DNA of 64,000 nt, from assembly GCA_018266875.1 (NCBI GenBank), contig JAFDZR010000018.1, forward strand, positions 17,916 through 81,915, read 5' to 3'. This document shows positions 3,703 through 36,069 of this stretch, in pieces. The notes under the pieces are model-generated. The model ran no database searches. It had not been told where the DNA came from and saw only the letters and a list, made by a program, of their open reading frames with translations. The stretch comes from Bacteroidota bacterium. GTDB lineage: Bacteria > Bacteroidota > Ignavibacteria > Tepidaquicellales > Tepidaquicellaceae. The stretch's first letter is position 1; the number at the start of each line of letters is the position of its first letter. The position numbers and the translations under genes are program-made.

Positions 3703-4809
3703 TTAGAGATACTGGTCCATTCCTTTTCTCCTCAGATAATCAACAATTTCCTTTACTCTCTGAGCCTCGCCTCTTTTGCATATAAGAAGTCCGTTTTCAG
3801 TGTTTATAATAAGAAGATCCTCTACGCCGACTGTGGCAACAATTTTCTGATCATTCAGAATCAGACAGTTCTTTGTGTCCTGCGTAACAGTCATTCCCTT
3901 TCTTACGTTTCCGTCCTGATCCTTTTCCTTTATATTATATACTTCGTCCCATGCGCCTACATCGTTCCAGCCGAAATGACTTCTGATTATAAATACGTTT
4001 GAGGATTTTTCCATTACTCCGTAGTCAATTGAAATGCTTTTTAATTTTGTAAATTCATCTTCGAGGATTTTTGGGAAATTCGTTGCTAAAATATTGTCCG
4101 ATAGCCTGTTAAGAGATTCAAAAAGATCAGGCATGTAGTTTCTGATCTCCTCCATCATTGTGTCCGTCCTGAAAATGAACATGCCGCTGTTCCAGAGAAA
4201 ATCACCGCTGTCCAGAAACGCTTTGGCCACTTCAAGATTTGGTTTCTCGGCAAAGGTTTTTACTTTGTAAATTCTTTCTGTGGATACAGCGCTTTTCTCT
4301 TCCGTTTCTATATCCGCAAAAAAATCAGAGTCATACTGAATGTATCCGTAACCTGTCTCCGGCTTTGTTGGGTGAATGCCAAGTGTGACAATTCCTCCGT
4401 TGTCATTTACAAACTGAAGTCCGCTTTTTATAACTCTGTGAAATTCATCGTTGTCTCCGATGAGATGGTCGGCTGCAACTACAAGTACGTTTGCCCTGGA
4501 CTGAAACCTGTTTATAAAAACGCAAGAAAGACCTATGCAGGGAGCCGTATTCCTGCCGACCGGTTCGCAAATTATATTCTCGTCGGGAATTTTCGGAAGC
4601 TGACGCTTCACTTCCTGCTTGTAGATTATGTTTGTTACCACAAAAATGTTTGTGTTCCTGAATACTCCGTCAAGTCTTTTGTATGCAAGCTGAAGAAGCG
4701 TATCATCGTCATCGGTTATTTTAAGGAATTGTTTCGGAAATTTGTAATTACCCTTTGGCCAGAATCTTGTCCCGACTCCTCCCGCCATTATCACCGCATA
4801 ATTTATCAT
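3703..4809 (-). CDS. Mannose-1-phosphate guanylyltransferase (nucleotidyltransferase family)
   Basis: 368 aa. N-terminal AVIMAGGVGTRFWP sugar-nucleotidyltransferase motif, with the length and C-terminal region typical of ManC-type enzymes lacking the isomerase domain. Confidence 0.85.
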   Translation of the reverse strand: MINYAVIMAGGVGTRFWPKGNYKFPKQFLKITDDDDTLLQLAYKRLDGVFRNTNIFVVTNIIYKQEVKRQLPKIPDENIICEPVGRNTAPCIGLSCVFINRFQSRANVLVVAADHLIGDNDEFHRVIKSGLQFVNDNGGIVTLGIHPTKPETGYGYIQYDSDFFADIETEEKSAVSTERIYKVKTFAEKPNLEVAKAFLDSGDFLWNSGMFIFRTDTMMEEIRNYMPDLFESLNRLSDNILATNFPKILEDEFTKLKSISIDYGVMEKSSNVFIIRSHFGWNDVGAWDEVYNIKEKDQDGNVRKGMTVTQDTKNCLILNDQKIVATVGVEDLLIINTENGLLICKRGEAQRVKEIVDYLRRKGMDQYL

Positions 4810-6904: not shown

Positions 6905-8062
6905 TTAAATATAGAACCGTTTAACTCTTGATGAAATATTACAGGTTATTTCGTATGAAATTGTGTCCGTTAATTCCGCAAGTTTGTATGCGGGATAATT
7001 TCTTCCGAACAGCTCTACGCTGTCATTTACTTTAATATTATCCTTAAGTCCGATATCCGCCATTATCCAGTCCATGCATACTGTTCCGGCTGTAGGATAA
7101 AGCTTTCCGTTTACATAGATCTTTGACCTGTTGCTCAGCGCTCTTGAATATCCGTCTCCGTAACCAACCGGAATTGAGGCTATTCGGGTTCTCTTTTCCG
7201 TATAATATGTCCTGCCGTATGAAATGCTTTGGCCTTTATCAAGTAACTTTATGAACTTTATCTTCGACCTTAACGTCATCACCGGTTCTATTCCTATCCT
7301 CTGCCTTACCCGCTTCTCGTCGGGATAAAATCCGTAAAGAGATATCCCCGGTCTTGCCATATTAAAATATCCGTCATTGAAATTCAGAATTCCGCCAGTA
7401 TTGCTGATGTGCCTCAGCTCAAACTTTATCAGATTATTCTCGATATTTTTTGTCACATCCTTAAAATCCTTCAGCTGTTTTTTTGAATATGCATTGCCGG
7501 GAATTTCACTCATTGCAAAATGAGAATAAATTCCTTTTATTTTCAAACCCTTCATTGAAGAAATTTTTCTGACGCCTTCATATACATCGCTGAGATGAAA
7601 ACCTGTTCTGTTTATTCCGGAGTCCGCCTGAATATGTACTGTTAATTTTTTATTGAGCTTTTCCGCTGTCCTGTTTAAAAGTTCGGCGGAGTTTATGCCG
7701 GCAATGGAAAATTCCACATTCTTTCCGGCTAATTTTTCCAGCAGTTTTGTTTTCTCTGTTACAAGTCCGAGACACAGTACGGGAATATTGTTGAGTTTTC
7801 TGGAATCAAGATAATTTCTAAGCTCTGCGGTCTCTGTGTAATCGGCTGTTCCGAGATAATCCGTTCCGCATCGTGCCAGCTCTTCCGCCACTATATTCAT
7901 TCCGTGCCCGTAAGCGTTTGCCTTTACAATCGAACAAATCCTGATTTTCTTATTTGAGATACGGGCATGTTTTCTGACTTTTAAAAAATTTTTCCTTAAA
8001 ATTTTAAGATCAATTTCCGCAAATGTATCGCTGAAATTTTTTTCAACGGTCTTTAAATTCAT
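6905..8062 (-). CDS. alr: Alanine racemase
   Basis: 385 aa. PLP-lysine motif VKANAYGHG, C-terminal beta-domain, conserved YGDGY-like segment (VGYGDGYSR). Confidence 0.93.
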   Translation of the reverse strand: MNLKTVEKNFSDTFAEIDLKILRKNFLKVRKHARISNKKIRICSIVKANAYGHGMNIVAEELARCGTDYLGTADYTETAELRNYLDSRKLNNIPVLCLGLVTEKTKLLEKLAGKNVEFSIAGINSAELLNRTAEKLNKKLTVHIQADSGINRTGFHLSDVYEGVRKISSMKGLKIKGIYSHFAMSEIPGNAYSKKQLKDFKDVTKNIENNLIKFELRHISNTGGILNFNDGYFNMARPGISLYGFYPDEKRVRQRIGIEPVMTLRSKIKFIKLLDKGQSISYGRTYYTEKRTRIASIPVGYGDGYSRALSNRSKIYVNGKLYPTAGTVCMDWIMADIGLKDNIKVNDSVELFGRNYPAYKLAELTDTISYEITCNISSRVKRFYI

Positions 8063-8482
8063 CTATTAATGTAAAAAATCTATTCGCCAAAAAGAATTTA
8101 TTTATTTGTCTATTAAACCCTCAGACAAATATTTTATAAATTTTTATAAAATATTTTCAAATCAAACTTGAAAATAATATTGAGTTTGTTTAATATTAAT
8201 AAAGGAATACAGAACTAAAATCTCTGTTAATACATTGTTAACAACTTTTTTAAAGAGTTTTTGAGGAGTTTGCTGGCAGGCAGCTTTAACCACTTACTAA
8301 CACCAAATGTTAATAAGTTTCCTCCGAACAGTTAACCATTATATAAATAAAGGCTTTAATTACAGCCGTCTTTATTAAAAACAGTGTTGATATTCTGTTT
8401 TTTCCCGCTCCTAAATATTGTTCTACATAAAGTAAAATATTAATTAACTTTGATTTGTTAATAATTTTTAATAATCTTAAGC
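8063..8482. other. Candidate oriC (AT-rich spacer upstream of dnaA with degenerate DnaA-box-like 9-mers)
   Basis: 420-bp non-coding spacer between divergent alr (-) and dnaA (+). It has a very AT-rich stretch at about 8090-8220. TGTTAATAA occurs at 8308-8316 and 8456-8464, TGTTGATAT at 8385-8393, TGTTAATAC at 8225-8233 and TGTTAACAA at 8236-8244. TGTTAATAA and TGTTGATAT match the TGTGGATAA consensus at 7/9; TGTTAATAC and TGTTAACAA at 6/9. All genes to the left are on the minus strand. Confidence 0.5.
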
Positions 8483-10015
8483 GTGATTAAATTCTCAGGC
8501 GCCGAATCAAAAAATGAACACGATGCAGACAGCGGCACAGGCAATAAGCAGCTGAACAGTAACGACGACACTTCCGGTACTGAAATTTTATGGAAAAAAT
8601 TTCTGGAACTTCTCTCCGATAATCTGAAAGCAGTTGAGATAAACACCTGGTTCTCTGTTATTATACCGAAAAGTTACAAAGATAATATTCTCACCATTTC
8701 CGTTCCGAGTGAAGATTATTACAGTCTGATAGAAAGCAGATACAATAAAATAATTTCTTCCATTACCGAAACCCTTCTTGGTCCGGAAGGAAAATTAAAA
8801 TATGAGATTTCTCAGTACGGATTATTCGGCGACAGCATCGAAGGCGATGCCGAAAATGAAAATGCCGTTATTCATGAAGACAAAGAAAAAAGATCAGCTT
8901 TCCGGGATATAAATTTAAACAAGTCTGAATCAGGCACCGATCCCTACAATAATTTTTCCTGCAACCTTAACCAGAAACATTTATTTGAAAACTTCATCAA
9001 AGGTGAAAGCAACGAACTTGCCGTAGCCGCGGCATATGCAATTTCAAATAATCCGGGCAAGACATACAATCCTTTTTTCGTTTACGGAGGCGTTGGTCTC
9101 GGAAAGACTCATCTGATTCAGGCAATAGGAAATGAGATCATTAAAAAAAATCCGGACATGAAAGTTTATTATACCACCGCGCCGGATTTTACAACTCAGT
9201 TTACAAACAATATTGCTCAGAACAGGATTGACTTTTCTTCCAACAGAAACGGCACAAAGAAACTCGATTCCTTTTATAAATCCCTTGACGTGCTTATACT
9301 TGACGACATTCAATATCTCAGCGGAAAAGAAAAAACTCAGGATTTTATGTACCAGATCTTCAATACCCTGTATAACGAAAAGAAGCATATTATATTTTCC
9401 AGCGATAAACCCATCAGCCAGATAAAAGGCGTTGAGGAAAGGCTGACTTCAAGATTTCAGTGGGGCATCACTGCAGACATTCAGGCGCCCAACTGGGAAA
9501 TGCGAGTTGCAATTATTCAGAAGAAGTTATTCGAGGCAGGTATAGAAGCTCCCGAAGACGTTGTTCATTTCATCGCCTCAAATGTCAAAGACAGTATAAG
9601 GACAATTGAGGGCTGTATTGTCGGGATTATTGCCGACAGCGTGCTGAGATACAAAGGCGAGATAAATATGGAAATTGCCGAAAACGTTATTGGAAGAGTT
9701 GTGGGAAATATTAAAAGAGCAAAAAATATTTCAATTGAAAATATCATTTATACCGTTGCAGGCTATTATAAAATTTCAGAAAACCAGATCCTCTCACGCA
9801 AACGCACAAAAGAAATTGCTTTCGCAAGACAGGTTGCAATGCATCTTGCAAAGGAACTCACACCGCTTACTCTCGAATCCATAGGACTGAACTTCGGCGG
9901 CAAAGACCATGCAACTGTTCTCTATGCAAATAATATTGTCTCAAATCTCATCAAGAAAGACAAGGACATACTGAATCAGATACTGGAAATAAAAGACCTG
10001 CTGAAAAATCTGTAA
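8483..10015 (+). CDS. dnaA: Chromosomal replication initiator protein DnaA
   Basis: 510 aa with a GTG start in the ORF track. AAA+ Walker A GGVGLGKTHL, Walker B VLILDDIQ, sensor/box VII region, C-terminal DnaA-box-binding HTH (KRTKEIAFARQVAMHLAKELT...GGKDHATV). The exact start is uncertain because the N-terminal extension is unusual. Confidence 0.95.
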   Translation: MIKFSGAESKNEHDADSGTGNKQLNSNDDTSGTEILWKKFLELLSDNLKAVEINTWFSVIIPKSYKDNILTISVPSEDYYSLIESRYNKIISSITETLLGPEGKLKYEISQYGLFGDSIEGDAENENAVIHEDKEKRSAFRDINLNKSESGTDPYNNFSCNLNQKHLFENFIKGESNELAVAAAYAISNNPGKTYNPFFVYGGVGLGKTHLIQAIGNEIIKKNPDMKVYYTTAPDFTTQFTNNIAQNRIDFSSNRNGTKKLDSFYKSLDVLILDDIQYLSGKEKTQDFMYQIFNTLYNEKKHIIFSSDKPISQIKGVEERLTSRFQWGITADIQAPNWEMRVAIIQKKLFEAGIEAPEDVVHFIASNVKDSIRTIEGCIVGIIADSVLRYKGEINMEIAENVIGRVVGNIKRAKNISIENIIYTVAGYYKISENQILSRKRTKEIAFARQVAMHLAKELTPLTLESIGLNFGGKDHATVLYANNIVSNLIKKDKDILNQILEIKDLLKNL

Positions 10016-13209: not shown

Positions 13210-13656
13210 TTATTTGGAAATATTATTCGGATTGAGCATCTTTTCCCTGCATTCTGCATCCCATGCCTGAATTTCCTGATTGGTAACCCTGTTCATTTCC
13301 TTTTCGCTGTATTTGGTCTTTATTTTTTCAAGCATACATTTACAGAATGTCTTCATGTTTTCCTGCTTTGACATATCGTCTTTTACCTGAGGTTTGTATT
13401 TCCCGTAACAGTTCTTAACGAATACGGAATCCATCTCTGCGGACCATTCGTGAAAATGCGGGTCTTCAGCATTTTTATCGTTGAAGTACACAAATATAAT
13501 AACAGCGGCTATTATCCCGGCGATTAAATAAATCCAGAGCCGTTCTTTTTTGGGAGTATTTTTTTCTTTCAAGTTTAATGTTTGTTTTTTCAATATTATA
13601 ATAATGAAATGATTTTTAAATACATATTCTTTACTCTTTAAACACTTTTTAAACAC
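13210..13656 (-). CDS. Small single-pass membrane protein, hypothetical
   Basis: ORF with one TM helix (LWIYLIAGIIAAVIIFVYF) and a Cys-containing C-terminal domain. The GTG start at 13656 lies inside an 11-bp tandem repeat, so the real start is probably downstream (TTG at 13593 or 13572). Confidence 0.55.
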   Translation of the reverse strand: MFKKCLKSKEYVFKNHFIIIILKKQTLNLKEKNTPKKERLWIYLIAGIIAAVIIFVYFNDKNAEDPHFHEWSAEMDSVFVKNCYGKYKPQVKDDMSKQENMKTFCKCMLEKIKTKYSEKEMNRVTNQEIQAWDAECREKMLNPNNISK

Positions 13657-13679
13657 TTTTTAAACACTCTTTAAACCGA
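13636..13679. repeat. 11-bp tandem repeat x4 (TTTAAACACTN)
   Basis: TAAACACT recurs at 13639, 13650 and 13661, and degenerate TAAACC at 13672, an exact 11-bp period. It lies in the divergent promoter region between the 13210 (-) and 13814 (+) genes. Confidence 0.85.
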
Positions 13680-14275: not shown

Positions 14276-14450
14276 AACCGGGACATGTCTTCTGAAACTG
14301 TCTGCTTCTTTCCTTACTTACCGTTCGTTTTCCTTAACGACGCAGAATATTTAAAATTATAAATCCGGTTGCCCGGTCCCGGGGATGTGTGTCAGATTAT
14401 ATTCTCCGGACTGTGCAGTCCAATACGGTTTCCGGTATTTTTTCCCCATT

Positions 14451-14495
14451 TAAACTAATTAAACTAATTAAACTAATTAAACTAATTAAACTAAA
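14451..14495. repeat. 9-bp tandem repeat x5 (TAAACTAAT)
   Basis: Perfect copies start at 14451, 14460, 14469 and 14478, with a degenerate fifth at 14487. It lies about 95 bp upstream of the multiheme cytochrome gene. Confidence 0.9.
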
Positions 14496-31908: not shown

Positions 31909-32599
31909 CATATATGTTCTGATTCCCGCCGTTAACGAGGAAAACTCAATTGCCAGAGTAATTGAAGACATTCCCGCTGATCTTGTAAAAGAAGTAGTGG
32001 TTGTTGACAACGGTTCCGAGGATAATACAATTAATGCCGCTGAAAAAGCGGGAGCTGCGGTTCTGTCGGAATCAGTCCGCGGATACGGCGCTGCATGCCT
32101 GAAGGGTCTTTCATACATTTTCGGAAAATGCAGTGATGATGACGTAATAGTTTTTCTTGACGGGGATTATTCGGATCATCCTGAAGAGATGGGAAAAATC
32201 GCCGCTCCTGTTATCGGTGAGAATTATGATATGGTCATCGGCTCAAGGATACTCGGCAAGAAACTGGGAATGACGGAAGAAGATTCTCTTTTACCGCAGG
32301 CGGAATTCGGTAACTGGCTTTCAACTGCATTGATTAAATTATTCTGGGGTTATGAATTCACTGACCTCGGTCCGTTCAGAGCAGTGAAAGTAAGTTCGCT
32401 GAAAAAAATGAAAATGAAAGATATGAATTACGGCTGGACTGTCGAGATGCAGATCAAAGCAGCGAAATTTAAAATGAACTGCACAGAAGTTCCGGTCAGC
32501 TACCGCAAACGTATTGGCGTTTCAAAAGTAACCGGGACTGTCAGCGGCAGCGTAAAGGCAGGTGTCAAAATTCTTTATACTATTTTTAAATCACTATGA
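31901..32599 (+). CDS. Family-2 glycosyltransferase (polyprenyl-phosphate sugar synthase-like)
   Basis: 232 aa. LIPAVNEENSI, VVVVDNGSEDNT and FLDGDYSD (DxD) motifs. The size and motifs fit small soluble GT2 enzymes, including the rSAM/selenodomain-associated 'transferase 2' type. Confidence 0.8.
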   Translation: MSDIYVLIPAVNEENSIARVIEDIPADLVKEVVVVDNGSEDNTINAAEKAGAAVLSESVRGYGAACLKGLSYIFGKCSDDDVIVFLDGDYSDHPEEMGKIAAPVIGENYDMVIGSRILGKKLGMTEEDSLLPQAEFGNWLSTALIKLFWGYEFTDLGPFRAVKVSSLKKMKMKDMNYGWTVEMQIKAAKFKMNCTEVPVSYRKRIGVSKVTGTVSGSVKAGVKILYTIFKSL

Positions 32600-32716
32600 A
32601 AGCATTACTATGAAAATTTATTTTCACCTCAATGTCTCTACGACTCGAAGAAATTTTTAACAGAATTTTTTTTCTGATCAAAGATCTTTTTGTTTAATAT
32701 TAATTACAAAATATTA

Positions 32717-32779
32717 AATTCGTAATTCATAATTCATAATTCGTAATTCATAATTCGTAATTCGTAATTCGTAATTGTA
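32717..32779. repeat. Heptamer microsatellite (AATTCRT) x9
   Basis: aattcgt aattcat aattcat aattcgt aattcat aattcgt aattcgt aattcgt aattgta, read directly from 32717. Confidence 0.9.
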
Positions 32780-32783
32780 ATAT

Positions 32784-32839
32784 GTCATTCCCGCGTGTTC
32801 TCTATTTTGTCATTCCCGCGTGCTCCCGGCGGGAATCTA
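32784..32839. repeat. GGGAAT-hairpin (REP-like) element
   Basis: GTCATTCCCGCGTG occurs twice (32784-32797 and 32809-32822). The second copy pairs with CCGGCGGGAATCTA (32826-32839), giving stem ATTCCCGC/GCGGGAAT. The same arms recur, inverted, at 35801-35815 and 35950-35964. Confidence 0.8.
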
Positions 32840-33175
32840 ATCAGACTCTGTCTTTCAATTTCAAATGCTAAATCTTACAATTCCCGCTGTTGTTGGTTTT
32901 TTCAAAAAGTTTGCCTGAGGTTCAGTTGAATATTTTATCACATCTTGTGCAACCTTTTTGTTCACCAACAACGGAAGATATTGTAGAATTATTTATTGAC
33001 GATTGAAGCAGCAGACATAACAGTCAGTGATACAGGTGACCAATAAGTTTACCTGTGTAAAGCAGAAATAATGAGGTTCTACAGTGTAAACTTTTCGGAA
33101 TACCGACACCGGCTAAAAATAACATTTTCAGGATCGGGATATATGAAACAGGTGCCGGTGGATCTTTTCTTGAAT

Positions 33176-33429
33176 CCCGGGAATAACTTACGGAAATCCG
33201 TAACAAACTCAAGGAATTCTTTGACTTTCCTGCGGAAATCCCTGACAAACTTACGGAAACCCGGGAATAACTTACTGAGACCCGGGACAAATTCTCGGAA
33301 TCCCGGGAATAACTTACGGAATCCCGGGACAGATTTACGGAAACCCGGGAGTAACTCACTGATCTGCGTAACTTACTTAAGGATTTCCCTTACAAACCTA
33401 CGGATTTCCTTGAATGATCTACAGAAATC
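33176..33429. repeat. Tandem array of about 12 degenerate 20-22-bp units (consensus CCCGGGAATAACTTACGGAAW)
   Basis: The units read contiguously from 33176: cccgggaataacttacggaaat, ccgtaacaaactcaaggaattc, tttgactttcctgcggaaat, ccctgacaaacttacggaaa, cccgggaataacttactgaga, cccgggacaaattctcggaat, cccgggaataacttacggaat, cccgggacagatttacggaaa, cccgggagtaactcactgatc, tgcgtaacttacttaaggattt, cccttacaaacctacggattt, ccttgaatgatctacagaaatc. There are no unique spacers between units. Confidence 0.9.
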
Positions 33430-33724
33430 ATTTTTAATAAATATATTACTCTGTAGTTAAAATATCAGAGAATTTAAACATTTTTCTAAAAATGCTTTGG
33501 AATTTTTTTACCGACGAATGAAGCAACAGTCAACACTATTTGAGATGTCGGTGACCAAAAGTTTGTGAGAAATAAATTTGTTAATTTAAGATTTTACAGA
33601 ACAAACTATTGGAACACCAACATCAGCGCAAATTATTGCTGTCAACAAACTTAAATCTCTGTTCCGTGTCTTGACTGTTAAATACATAGTTCATACCTTT
33701 TAGAAAATTAATAAAGGAGAAATT

Positions 33725-35740
33725 ATGAAACAGCTAATCTTTACAACTTATATATTACTGATTGGAATAATAACATTTAATACCGGTCTGTCTTCACCTA
33801 TCAATCCATACATAAACTCCGTTTCACCGCCGATGAATTCAAACATTGTATTAAAATCTTCTGACATTGTTATCACATTCATGCAGGATATGAACGGATC
33901 GCTGATGACGGATGAAAACATAAAACTTTTCGGATATCAGACCGGACTTATGACTGCTTCGCTTGATTATAATTCAGTGACAAAAACTCTGACAATAAAT
34001 CCAGTTAATAATTTTAAGAACGGCGAGAAGATCAGTCTCACACTTACTTCGGGACTAAAGACAATTGCGAATGAAAGTATCACTCCATTTGTTTATTCAT
34101 TCAGGACAAAGGCTCTCGGTGGGACTGGTTTTTTTACAAAGTCTTCCGGCATTATCAACAATAATCAATTTACATATATTTTATCCGGTGATGTTGACAA
34201 TGACGGAGATATCGATCTTCTTTTTAATGACAAAATATTCAAAAATAACGGAAACGCTCTATTTACATATTATTCATCACTAAGTATTTCAGGATATCCG
34301 ATAATGGCAGATTTCGATTCTGATGGGGACCTTGATATACAAGTTGCATTGAATAACAATACATATTTGTTTCAAAACAACGGTGTTGGAGATTTTACTC
34401 AAACCACTTCTTATGCTGGATTAAATGGCTCTATTGGTGATTTTGACGGAAACGGATATTTTGATATGGCTTATTTTTCACAACAAACAGGATTAGATAT
34501 TTTAGTAGTAAAAAATTCACAGGGTATTTCTTCAATTGATACTGTTTATCATGTAAGCACTAATTGTTTCAATCCTCAATACAATTATTATGATAGAATT
34601 ATTATTAATGATATGAATAATGATGGTTCTTTAGATTTTATTGGAATTAATGGAACTGGATTTGGTGATAGTATTGAGGGATATTCATTGTGCAGAAGTT
34701 TTCATAAATTTACAAATGATGGTTCAGGTAAGTTTTTTTCTCAATTTTTTTATTCACAACAACTAAATAATTATTCTCCGCCAATATTATGGATTGGAGA
34801 CACTAAAACTTTTGATTATGATAATGACGGATTTAATGATATTATATCACCAGGGTTGAATCTTAAAAATGACGGCTCAGGATTATTTTTAGATCAGGGA
34901 TATTTTATTCCGTTTCATAATTCTGCAGATTTTGATTTTAACGGAGATGGATTTATTGATCTAATAACAATTTCCAGCTTCTCTTCAACTGTTATCGTTA
35001 ATTCAAATAATGGTAATGGAACATTTAGCCAAAGTTATCTCAGCAATAATTATTCTTTTCGTTCATCCGCATCAGGAGATTTTGATAATGACGGGGATAT
35101 TGATATTGCTATAAAAGAATATTATACTAATGAAGTCGCCATCTTACTCAACGGCGACTCACCATTACCCGTCGAGCTTTCTTCATTTTCTTCAAGTGTA
35201 AATTCAAACTCAGTAAAATTAAACTGGTCCACTTCAAGCGAGCAAAACAACTCCGGCTTTGAGATACAGAGAACGTCTTTAAAAAATGAATCTCCGTATG
35301 CATGGACGAAGATCGGATTCGCTGAAGGTCAGGGAAATTCAAACTCTTCTGCAAATTACAATTTCGAAGATAAAAATTTATTGTCAGGAAAATATAAATA
35401 CCGTCTAAAGCAGATCGACTTCAACGGTAATTTCAAATATTATGATCTTTCGAATGAGGTAGTGATCGGCATTCCGACTTCGACAGAGTTTATGCAAAAT
35501 CATCCAAATCCTTTTAATCCGGTTACAAATATTTCTTACAGACTTTCGGAGAATGGCTTTGTGACTTTAAAAGTGTTTGATAATTCGGGCAGAGAATTGA
35601 AAACGCTTGTGAATGAATTTAAAGAGGCAGGATATTATACAATTGAATTCAACGGCAGTAATCTTGCGAGCGGGATTTATTTTTATAAGCTGACCGCGGG
35701 GGATTTTGTTCAGACAAAAAAGCTGTCGCTGGTTAAGTAA
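33725..35740 (+). CDS. Secreted FG-GAP/VCBS-repeat protein with N-terminal Ig-like domain and T9SS C-terminal sorting domain
   Basis: 671 aa. Signal peptide, repeated calcium-binding DxDxDGDxD loops (DVDNDGDIDL, DFDSDGDLDI, DMNNDGSLDF, DYDNDGFNDI, DFDNDGDIDI). C-terminal NHPNPFNPVTNISYRL...GIYFYKLTAGDFVQTKKLSLVK. Confidence 0.85.
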   Translation: MKQLIFTTYILLIGIITFNTGLSSPINPYINSVSPPMNSNIVLKSSDIVITFMQDMNGSLMTDENIKLFGYQTGLMTASLDYNSVTKTLTINPVNNFKNGEKISLTLTSGLKTIANESITPFVYSFRTKALGGTGFFTKSSGIINNNQFTYILSGDVDNDGDIDLLFNDKIFKNNGNALFTYYSSLSISGYPIMADFDSDGDLDIQVALNNNTYLFQNNGVGDFTQTTSYAGLNGSIGDFDGNGYFDMAYFSQQTGLDILVVKNSQGISSIDTVYHVSTNCFNPQYNYYDRIIINDMNNDGSLDFIGINGTGFGDSIEGYSLCRSFHKFTNDGSGKFFSQFFYSQQLNNYSPPILWIGDTKTFDYDNDGFNDIISPGLNLKNDGSGLFLDQGYFIPFHNSADFDFNGDGFIDLITISSFSSTVIVNSNNGNGTFSQSYLSNNYSFRSSASGDFDNDGDIDIAIKEYYTNEVAILLNGDSPLPVELSSFSSSVNSNSVKLNWSTSSEQNNSGFEIQRTSLKNESPYAWTKIGFAEGQGNSNSSANYNFEDKNLLSGKYKYRLKQIDFNGNFKYYDLSNEVVIGIPTSTEFMQNHPNPFNPVTNISYRLSENGFVTLKVFDNSGRELKTLVNEFKEAGYYTIEFNGSNLASGIYFYKLTAGDFVQTKKLSLVK

Positions 35741-35998
35741 ATTTCAAATTACGAATTTCAAATTTCAAATAAGAAATTTTTGGATGTGTTTCTTACTGAA
35801 TAGATTCCCGCCGGGAACAGACAGTCCGAAAACAATGGGAATGCCTCAAAGTCTCCAAGACTCAAAGAAAAACAATTTAAAACAAACCACTTTGAGCCTT
35901 CGAGTCTTAGAGGCAGGTATTAACATATTGTTTTCGGAAAGTCTGGAACATGCGGGAATGACATTATAAAAGCGGTTAACCTTTGAGCCTTCGAGGCA
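35740..35998. repeat. Composite repeat: 7-bp-periodic A/T tract, split GGGAAT hairpin and nested MITE-like hairpin (copy 2)
   Basis: AATTTCA/AATTACG heptamers at 35740-35780. TAGATTCCCGCCGGG (35801-35815) and CATGCGGGAATGAC (35950-35963) are the two REP arms, separated by an inserted hairpin. That hairpin has termini CAGACAGTCCGAAAACAAT (35818-35836) / ATTGTTTTCGGAAAGTCTG (35927-35945) and inner arms GCCTCAAAGTCTCCAAGACTCAAAG / CTTTGAGCCTTCGAGTCTTAGAGGC. An extra half-copy CTTTGAGCCTTCGAGGC lies at 35981-35997. Confidence 0.75.
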
Positions 35999-36069
35999 AA
36001 CCCGAAAAAATTTAAATATAGAATTTAAATACCTCTAATCCTAACTTTGTAAAACAAATCTTACACTGT

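Follow-up and report, generated by a model that had tools for sequence, protein, structure and literature searches.

A helically phased 21-bp dyad-symmetric repeat array upstream of a type IX secretion cargo gene in Ignavibacteria, a candidate protein-binding array

Among the bacterial DNA elements built from short direct repeats, plasmid iterons and the partition sites parC and tubC consist of contiguous, phased repeats of about 21 bp: the iterons of R6K and RK2, parC of R1 and pSK41, and tubC carry 17-22-bp repeats in 4 to 12 or more copies at whole helical turns, on which dimers bind co-operatively along one face of the DNA. Repetitive extragenic palindromic (REP) sequences and bacterial interspersed mosaic elements (BIMEs) form intergenic clusters of short imperfect palindromes, which in E. 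coli bind proteins (gyrase, IHF) and stabilise RNA. The short and long tandemly repeated repetitive (STRR and LTRR) sequences of cyanobacteria and the variable-number tandem-repeat (VNTR) minisatellites of bacteria are non-coding intergenic tandem arrays with unit turnover, and the 7-bp repeats of Haemophilus hmw and the TAAA tract of Neisseria nadA lie upstream of promoters for surface or secreted proteins and differ in copy number between close relatives. To our knowledge, gene regulation in Ignavibacteria is essentially unstudied, as is the control of type IX secretion system (T9SS) cargo outside a few Bacteroidota models. In this work we describe a tandem repeat array at 33172-33423 (no strand assigned, here or for its subregions) of a 64,000-nucleotide stretch of the Ignavibacteria contig JAFDZR010000018.1 (assembly GCA_018266875.1), hereafter called the window; the array lies upstream of a T9SS-cargo gene. 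The reading that we prefer, with a probability of roughly 0.4, is that the array acts in cis as non-coding DNA, its units forming a helically phased row of predicted, dyad-symmetric binding sites for an oligomerising DNA-binding protein; iterons, parC and operator arrays are the closest working analogies for such a co-operative protein-binding array. Loci compared with the window carry labels of the form L0xx.

The array is composed of 12 head-to-tail units, each exactly 21 bp long, with no indel. A first-pass annotation of the window had listed a twelve-unit 21-bp tandem array at 33176-33429; that array is real and is the same one, 4 bp out of register, and the unit lengths of 20-22 bp given there become a uniform 21 bp. 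The register is kept through 62 departures from the column majority, the mean identity between units being about 0.64 and that between adjacent units 48-81% (10-17 of 21 bases). Two unit types, AATAAC-like and ACAAAC-like, alternate along the array and give it a 42-bp higher-order period; Tandem Repeats Finder scored only the core (33233-33362) and preferred a period of 42 (81% matches) to a period of 21 (74%). The consensus 20-mer CCCGGGAATAACTTACGGAA has three matches at three or fewer mismatches, compared with 0.00 in shuffled sequences. The palindrome CCCGGG occurs at 33176, 33260, 33281, 33302, 33323 and 33344, exactly as the annotation had listed, and these six sites are half of the 12 found in the window, where 4.4 are expected. 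A CRISPR array was ruled out because CRISPR repeats are parted by unique spacers and the units here are contiguous, with no unique spacers.

Each unit contains two inverted half-sites of 6-7 bp, TTACGGA and TCCGTAA (TCACGG and CCGTGA in a relative). The centres of the half-sites are 10-11 bp apart, which places all of them on one face of the helix. The best dyad site, TTACGGAAATCCGTAA at 33188-33203, spans the junction of units 1 and 2 and has perfect 7-bp inverted arms about two central bases (TTACGGA-AA-TCCGTAA, 7+2+7, 0 mismatches); weaker versions of it, judged by per-unit pairing, are present at every unit junction. The dyad centres at unit positions 3.5 and 14 are common to the window and to two related arrays in other genomes, L037 and L033. 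In the window and in L037 none of 300 column-permuted controls reaches the observed dyad complementarity, and in L033 the value is above 95% of such controls; 75.6% of cells are paired at the dyad centres, against 24-57% when the partners are slid. Intrinsic curvature was also considered and rejected: in a wedge model, with approximate parameters after Bolshoy/Trifonov, the array gives 6.6 degrees per turn, its shuffles 6.4-6.8 and a phased A-tract control 26.

The closest paralogues of the FG-GAP protein encoded downstream of the array lie elsewhere in their genomes; ahead of them there is usually a gene of about 500 aa containing Asp-box (BNR-like) motifs. At one of these related T9SS operons, L037 (JGI Ga0100478_11091), where the adjacent FG-GAP protein is 68-69% identical to that of the window, a homologous array of 14 units of 21 bp (738-1031, strict register, 42-bp period with 85% matches) occupies the same relative position; the association with the T9SS gene proposed in the first-pass annotation is thereby borne out. 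The homology between the window and L037 runs unbroken from the array through a block of about 75 bp, an element of about 160 bp termed B', the GTGTCTTGACT motif and the Shine-Dalgarno sequence to the start codon, and the order array, B', TTGACT promoter and Shine-Dalgarno sequence is common to the window, L037 and L038. Element B' (33500-33659, plus strand), about 66-70% identical to L037 1105-1250, is one portion of the conserved leader region in this T9SS operon family. A partial duplicate of it, element A (32985-33130, plus strand), about 70% identical and in direct orientation, lies on the far side of the array; no counterpart of element A was matched in L037. The predicted promoter of the T9SS gene is a sigma-70-like motif at 33671-33699 on the plus strand (TTGACT at 33671-33676, a 17-bp spacer, and TACCTT at 33694-33699), followed by AAAGGAG at 33713-33719 and ATG at 33725; the putative transcription start is read from these motifs. 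The surrounding block GTGTCTTGAC is conserved in L004, L037 and L040, and L040 reads TTGACA-17-TAAACT there. Between the end of the array and the -35 hexamer (33671) are 248 bp, and the array covers the interval from about 250 to 500 bp upstream of that hexamer.

Conservation along this region is uneven. At 177 fourfold-degenerate sites in the adjacent FG-GAP gene the window and L037 are 59% identical, and this figure served as the neutral level. The three promoter-side units (units 10-12, 33361-33423) are 84% identical to L037 units 12-14 (53/63, gap-free) and the promoter with its Shine-Dalgarno sequence is 83% identical; the end of the array nearest to the promoter is therefore as conserved as the promoter itself. 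The other values are 73% for the post-array block (33424-33499), 66% for B', 58-64% for the array interior and 40% for the left flank. The post-array block starts with a truncated unit, GAAATCATTTTT, which is resembled by GAAACATTTT, the end of the L033 array. It had been noted earlier that the units degrade toward the right end, and the comparison reverses this: the right-hand units are of the ancestral type and are the best conserved, and the CCCGGG units are derived. The five consecutive units with CCCGGG (units 5-9, 33256-33360), in which CCGTAA or CCGTGA has become CCGGGA, are only 58% identical to L037, the least L037-like segment; unit 1 (33172-33192) carries the same variant. At these columns L037 reads CCGTAA or CCGGGA and L033 reads CCGTGA. 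The phased CCCGGG sites, earlier taken as the key feature, are thus a derived, local form of TCCGTAA/CCGTGA, propagated by duplication of units in this lineage, and not the conserved feature of the array, the interior of which has been remodelled by unit duplication and loss. A pattern of two adjacent CCCGGG units gave no match in 185,579 reference genomes or in JGI metagenomes, which fits a lineage-specific origin of CCCGGG.

Related arrays occur in other contexts. A degenerate three-unit periodic pattern retrieved 13 loci, all of them 21-bp arrays, and only one, L033 in an Ignavibacteria metagenome-assembled genome (MAG; unit GAAACCCGTGACTATTTCACG), agrees with the window consensus at all 8 of the 8 unconstrained columns. 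The remaining loci (Culturomica, Flavobacterium and GC-rich metagenome contigs) are not claimed as members of the family, as they could be chance matches among many natural 21-bp arrays. There is no flank homology between the window array and the L033 array, and the gene nearest to the L033 array is found on its opposite side and on the opposite strand, so that the orientation of the array relative to the gene is reversed. A fourth and more distant array, L042, was found via a translated-repeat match; it has 10 units and the 42-bp alternation, and it is annotated as a 136-aa protein (P0243). All four arrays (12 units in the window, 14 in L037, at least 9 in L033 and 10 in L042) keep the exact 21-bp register with no indel, and columns G1, A2, C6, C7, A11 and A15 are nearly invariant in the window, L037 and L033, as would be expected of a binding motif.

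The strict register, the inverted half-sites recurring once per turn, the above-neutral conservation beside the promoter, the invariant columns common to different genomes and the indifference to orientation seen in L033 are the grounds on which we favour a binding array, and the earlier suggestion of a protein-binding array on one face of the DNA remains the best reading. From the comparison with L037, the array appears to belong to the upstream region of a T9SS-cargo operon family in Ignavibacteria, and regulation of the downstream operon is the likely effect of such a putative binding array. In the mechanism that we propose, dimers, or dimers of dimers, would bind co-operatively along about 250 bp, and the resulting nucleoprotein filament, about 250-500 bp upstream of the -35 hexamer, would set the activity of the sigma-70-like promoter by silencing or anti-silencing. 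Whole 42-bp super-units could be gained or lost by slippage or unequal exchange, changing the length of the platform and leaving its phase intact; the CCCGGG sites would then be accidental, the outcome of amplification of a single variant unit in this lineage.

Several observations weigh against this proposal. No candidate gene for a binding protein lies beside the array in the window, L037, L033 or L042, and the promoter assignment is itself motif-based. The array is absent from the other paralogous operons L003, L039 and L040 and is hence dispensable; its interior, at 58-64% identity to L037, changes at about the neutral level, with free unit turnover. Isolated copies of the dyad site do not occur elsewhere in the 64-kb window beyond chance, the three best-conserved units (10-12) do not hold the best palindromes, and in the amplified CCCGGG units the TCCGTAA half-site is weakened. 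The placement of the L033 and L042 arrays in unrelated contexts is at least equally compatible with a dispersed family of repeats, and these genomes are rich in other short intergenic tandem arrays.

Many of the same points are what one would expect of a neutral or selfish palindromic minisatellite of the REP/BIME kind, in which a hairpin unit was seeded between genes and expanded by slippage or unequal exchange, and in which the array plays no sequence-specific part for the T9SS gene; both its register and its dyad symmetry would then be inherited from the founding unit and from the mechanism of expansion. Besides the turnover of the interior, the related arrays at non-homologous loci and the operons without an array, this explanation draws on the absence of covariation between the dyad arms (the observed paired fraction was equalled or exceeded in 123 of 500 shuffles), on the abundance in this lineage of 7-, 9- and 11-bp intergenic arrays and REP-like hairpins, on a gene for a Y1 transposase (REP-associated type) 1.4 kb from the L042 array, and on an analogous 21-bp array carried by an element at two or more loci of a Culturomica MAG. 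It leaves unaccounted for the 84% identity of the promoter-side units against 59% at neutral sites, the lack of any indel in four arrays despite heavy substitution and the recurrence of the same invariant columns in different genomes. Moreover, there is one array in 64 kb, and a scan with a hidden Markov model (HMM) found no further copy in the window or in the compared Ignavibacteria loci. We regard a neutral or selfish minisatellite as the main rival explanation, only somewhat less probable than the binding array.

The relation to REP sequences in particular can be examined in the window itself. Each unit is a small, hairpin-capable imperfect palindrome, and to this extent the suggestion of an expanded REP derivative is sound. 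No link to the neighbouring REP-like hairpin GTCATTCCCGCG could be demonstrated: the array is identical to it at 10 of 12 positions on the minus strand, but the shared heptamer, CGGGAAT/ATTCCCG, is over-represented throughout the window (38 occurrences against 9.6 expected), both within genes and between them, and nothing else is shared. The GGGAAT core previously noted in both the array and the hairpins is indeed present in both, but it is not specific to them. Like enterobacterial REP/BIME elements and REPINs, the array is intergenic, is made of short imperfect palindromes in regular succession, varies in unit number between relatives and has kin at unrelated loci; unlike them, its units are 21 bp with arms of only 6-7 bp (REPs are 35-40 bp), they stand head to tail in helical register, and a single array is found in 64 kb. 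With STRR and LTRR sequences and VNTR minisatellites the array shares its non-coding intergenic nature and the turnover of its units, and the same genomes carry heptamer and nonamer arrays; it differs from them in having a part whose conservation at a homologous locus exceeds the neutral level, in its dyad architecture and in the indel-free register held across genomes.

Some further observations concern two of the other array-bearing genomes mentioned above. In L042 the Y1_Tnp gene (2299-2730) and AACCCCACGATTTATCGTGGGGA palindromes lie within 1.5 kb of the 21/42-bp dyad array (4136-4345), and the REP sequence that accompanies the transposase gene is a different one. The 21-bp array of the Culturomica sp. 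MAG (GAATTCCCGAATTCATTTTCG; complete copies have 10-11 units) sits inside an element of about 400 bp with conserved flanks (L031 186-395, L034 4114-4344, L035 1-84, L036 4569-4778). The element is present at two or more loci, beside prs and beside mnmE, and near-identical contigs differ in unit order and in a nearby TTAATG[AG] heptamer tract. This array is possibly analogous to that of the window and is not claimed as a homologue.

The array is crossed by open reading frames (ORFs), which raises the question of whether it encodes a repeat protein, or the relic of one, either as ORF129 on the plus strand (33071-33460, 129 aa, NPGNNLR heptads) or as a protein of 7- or 14-residue repeats on the minus strand. 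In favour of coding, the plus frame is open in all three arrays (window, L037 and L033), public assemblies list ORF129 as a gene, every length change is a multiple of 3, and a minus frame of L037 (…ELLEKLKELRESFQ…) reads as an ideal coiled coil, matching generic coiled-coil Pfam families such as Laminin_II (34.1 bits). Against it, pN/pS (the ratio of nonsynonymous to synonymous change) is 0.85-1.06 in every one of the six frames, whether units or arrays are compared (0.88 for ORF129), and the differences are not biased towards any codon position. Neither a Pfam match nor a homologue was found for ORF129; some 20 codons at its start fall within element A, the homologue of which, B', is non-coding, and the start of the plus frame differs among the three arrays (ATG, TTG, or a GTG inside the repeat). 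The conserved unit columns would by themselves suffice to exclude stop codons from the plus frame. On the minus strand the coiled-coil frame lacks a start codon (ATG, GTG or TTG) in both the window and L037 and is interrupted in the window; searched against 1.84 billion representatives, it retrieved only 7 repeat ORFs, unrelated and of low complexity. An ORF of 111 aa (33024-33359) also crosses the array on this strand, and the two otherwise open minus frames each contain one stop in the array (33390-33392 and 33373-33375). The annotation's statement that both strands are stop-free therefore stands for the plus strand and fails for the minus strand, and its view of the ORFs as by-products of periodicity is supported by the pN/pS ratios, the missing homologues and the stop-excluding columns. 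Coding by ORF129 or by either minus frame was rejected on the pN/pS values near 1, the missing starts, the internal stops and the lack of real homologues; ORF129 is judged spurious, and a coding or relic origin is very improbable.

A role at the RNA level would require that the array be transcribed from one strand and fold into a string of hairpins that binds or sequesters a protein, in the manner of a CsrB-like sponge, or act as a long structured leader. Both strands do fold better than shuffled sequences (z of -4.2 for the plus and -5.2 for the minus strand; -4.5 and -4.2 in L033), because the consensus is palindromic, and a GGA triplet spans most unit junctions (…ACG|GAA…). These triplets fall, however, in predicted stems and not in loops. 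Hairpin covariation is lacking, as given above, the array has no Rfam match, and neither strand asymmetry nor compensatory change was found within it. No terminator-like site is present in 32400-33900, where promoter-like matches are at chance level, and the conserved promoter motif lies downstream of the array; the reversed orientation in L033 also speaks against a transcript-level function. RNA hairpins as such, and a CsrB/RsmZ-type sponge or other Rfam family, were accordingly rejected on these counts, and we consider an RNA element improbable. Elements A and B' were likewise searched for conserved RNA structure and none was found, the consensus fold being weak and its covariation term unfavourable.

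In the number, length and phase of its units (12 x 21 bp) the array has the form of an iteron series, and the first-pass annotation had suggested an iteron-like array. As a replication origin or a centromere-like partition site, however, the array is largely refuted. The window is Ignavibacteria chromosome: homologues of the proteins encoded on both flanks all come from Ignavibacteria or Bacteroidota MAGs, and chromosomal synteny is shared with relatives. The gene dnaA (Bac_DnaA, DnaA_N, DnaA_C; 8483-10015) stands at the cumulative GC-skew minimum, and the array is 25 kb away. Glycosyltransferase and T9SS-cargo genes flank the array; no rep or par gene adjoins it in the window, no parA, parM or tubZ with an adaptor gene is present in the flanks of the window, L037, L033 or L042, and the array has no plasmid, phage or viral similarity. 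What it shares with iterons and partition sites is the contiguity of units in the 17-22-bp class at whole helical turns; what sets it apart is its chromosomal position, the palindromic units, the 42-bp alternation and the missing rep and par genes. The dnaA region itself (window 8062-10015), in which a 420-bp AT-rich segment before the gene carries 10-11-bp repeats at 8127-8162, 8247-8271 and 8453-8475, is probably the chromosomal origin.

The array has also been proposed as a phase-variable spacer, that is, as a copy-number tuner which would vary in 42-bp steps and thereby switch or tune an operon for surface or secreted proteins. Part of this proposal has a basis in a relative: L037 and L038 have identical flanks and FG-GAP proteins, and their arrays differ in length by exactly one 42-bp super-unit. 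The difference is the loss of one of two identical adjacent 42-mers and could also be an assembly collapse. The 12 units of the window against the 14 of L037 also speak for variation, as do the contingency-locus hallmarks of the operon family described below. In the lineage of the window no variation in copy number was seen: the array is identical in three assemblies, of which the ENA and JGI assemblies are identical over the same 14 kb and perhaps derive from one sample, and a Logan contig from another run has the identical array. Moreover, neighbouring units at 48-81% identity, with a longest exact internal repeat of about 24 bp (by reading the sequence), are too diverged for easy slippage; the window holds no tract of identical units, and the array is placed neither in a coding frame nor in the core promoter, being at least about 250 bp from the -35 hexamer. 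The likeness to the hmw and nadA tracts, which also precede promoters of surface- or secreted-protein genes and differ in copy number between close relatives, is limited by the mutual divergence of the 21/42-bp units, in which slippage should be rare, by the constancy in the window lineage, and by the fact that the related operons have a tetranucleotide tract of their own in the coding region. Copy-number tuning, for which there is scarcely any evidence, would be compatible with a binding array or with a minisatellite, and as an account of the array it is of low probability.

The tracts of the paralogous T9SS operons are repeats of (GCTT)4-7 or (TTGTCTTC)5, located just past the start codon of the partner gene, in the signal-peptide region (L004 108-131, L005 4-19, L037 1351-1370, L039 2880-2907, L040 1302-1341). 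In most assemblies of these operons the frame from the start codon ends after 33-83 codons, a classical sign of phase variation driven by slippage. The T9SS gene of the window has neither the tract nor a 5' partner gene. The 63 bp before its start (33662-33724) are 92% identical to L004 15-77, the leader of an Asp-box partner gene, and the FG-GAP gene of the window appears to have been joined directly to the operon leader with loss of the partner. As regards assembly of the region, the Logan contig L008 (SRR32910807), identical to the window, ends at 33203, 31 bp into the array, and three other Logan contigs end at 32837, in a REP hairpin; these ends may reflect graph branching from repeats or population heterogeneity.

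The T9SS-cargo gene downstream of the array (33725-35740, plus strand) encodes 671 aa with Big_5, FG-GAP (VCBS) and Por_Secre_tail domains (Pfam), with homologues all from Ignavibacteria or Bacteroidota. Upstream of the array are genes of the PMT_2 and GT2 glycosyltransferase families, and MptA_B and DUF2064 are also among the neighbours. In the closest relatives, with GT2 84% identical and synteny otherwise perfect, MptA_B follows GT2 after only 254-275 bp; a segment of about 3.4 kb (32600-36069) is thus lineage-specific in the window, and it comprises the T9SS gene, the array with elements A and B', and REP-like hairpins, with a heptamer array at each boundary (32717-32781 and 35739-35779). 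The REP-like hairpins (GTCATTCCCGCG…CGGGAATC) and a long palindrome of about 75 bp occur on either side of the T9SS gene in inverted orientation (32784-32840, 35796-35819, 35842-35915 and 35946-35964); for the long palindrome Rfam gives only sub-threshold matches to microRNA precursors. The heptamer array at 35739 begins within the stop codon of the T9SS gene. Heptamer and nonamer arrays at or just past stop codons are found at many genes of these Ignavibacteria (AATTCGT x9, AAATTTC x4.6, AATGAAC x20 and ACAAACTTA x18); in addition to the two in the window, such arrays lie at L037 520-550 and 5012-5157, L033 2881-3018 and 7435-7767, and L016/L018 6697-6760, where L016 and L018 differ by three heptamers. 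They resemble the STRR repeats of cyanobacteria and might serve as 3'-end or terminator elements. Other perfect intergenic arrays in the window are ACTCTTTAAAC x4 (13633-13676) and TTAAACTAA x5 (14450-14494).

A phased repeat array, or a palindromic minisatellite, is a known kind of object. The present family, its 21/42-bp dyad architecture and its association with T9SS cargo have not been described before, and a literature search on 21-bp repeats in Bacteroidetes or Ignavibacteria and on repeats upstream of T9SS genes returned nothing relevant. The gene calls made across such arrays, as with ORF129 in public assemblies, are a warning that gene callers annotate them as proteins. If the array is a neutral minisatellite, it offers a clean case of concerted evolution in a palindromic repeat. 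If it is a binding platform, a 42-bp probe and one perfect 16-bp palindrome would provide a handle for finding the factor and for testing how operons of this family are switched. More speculatively, and doubtful at present, the 21/42-bp dyad arrays may be the cis component of a regulatory or chromatin-like system, so far undescribed, in Ignavibacteria and perhaps in the wider Fibrobacteres-Chlorobi-Bacteroidetes (FCB) group, in which an oligomerising protein would coat arrays upstream of phase-variable T9SS-cargo operons and at a few other loci, and the length of the array, changing in 42-bp steps, would set the level of expression.

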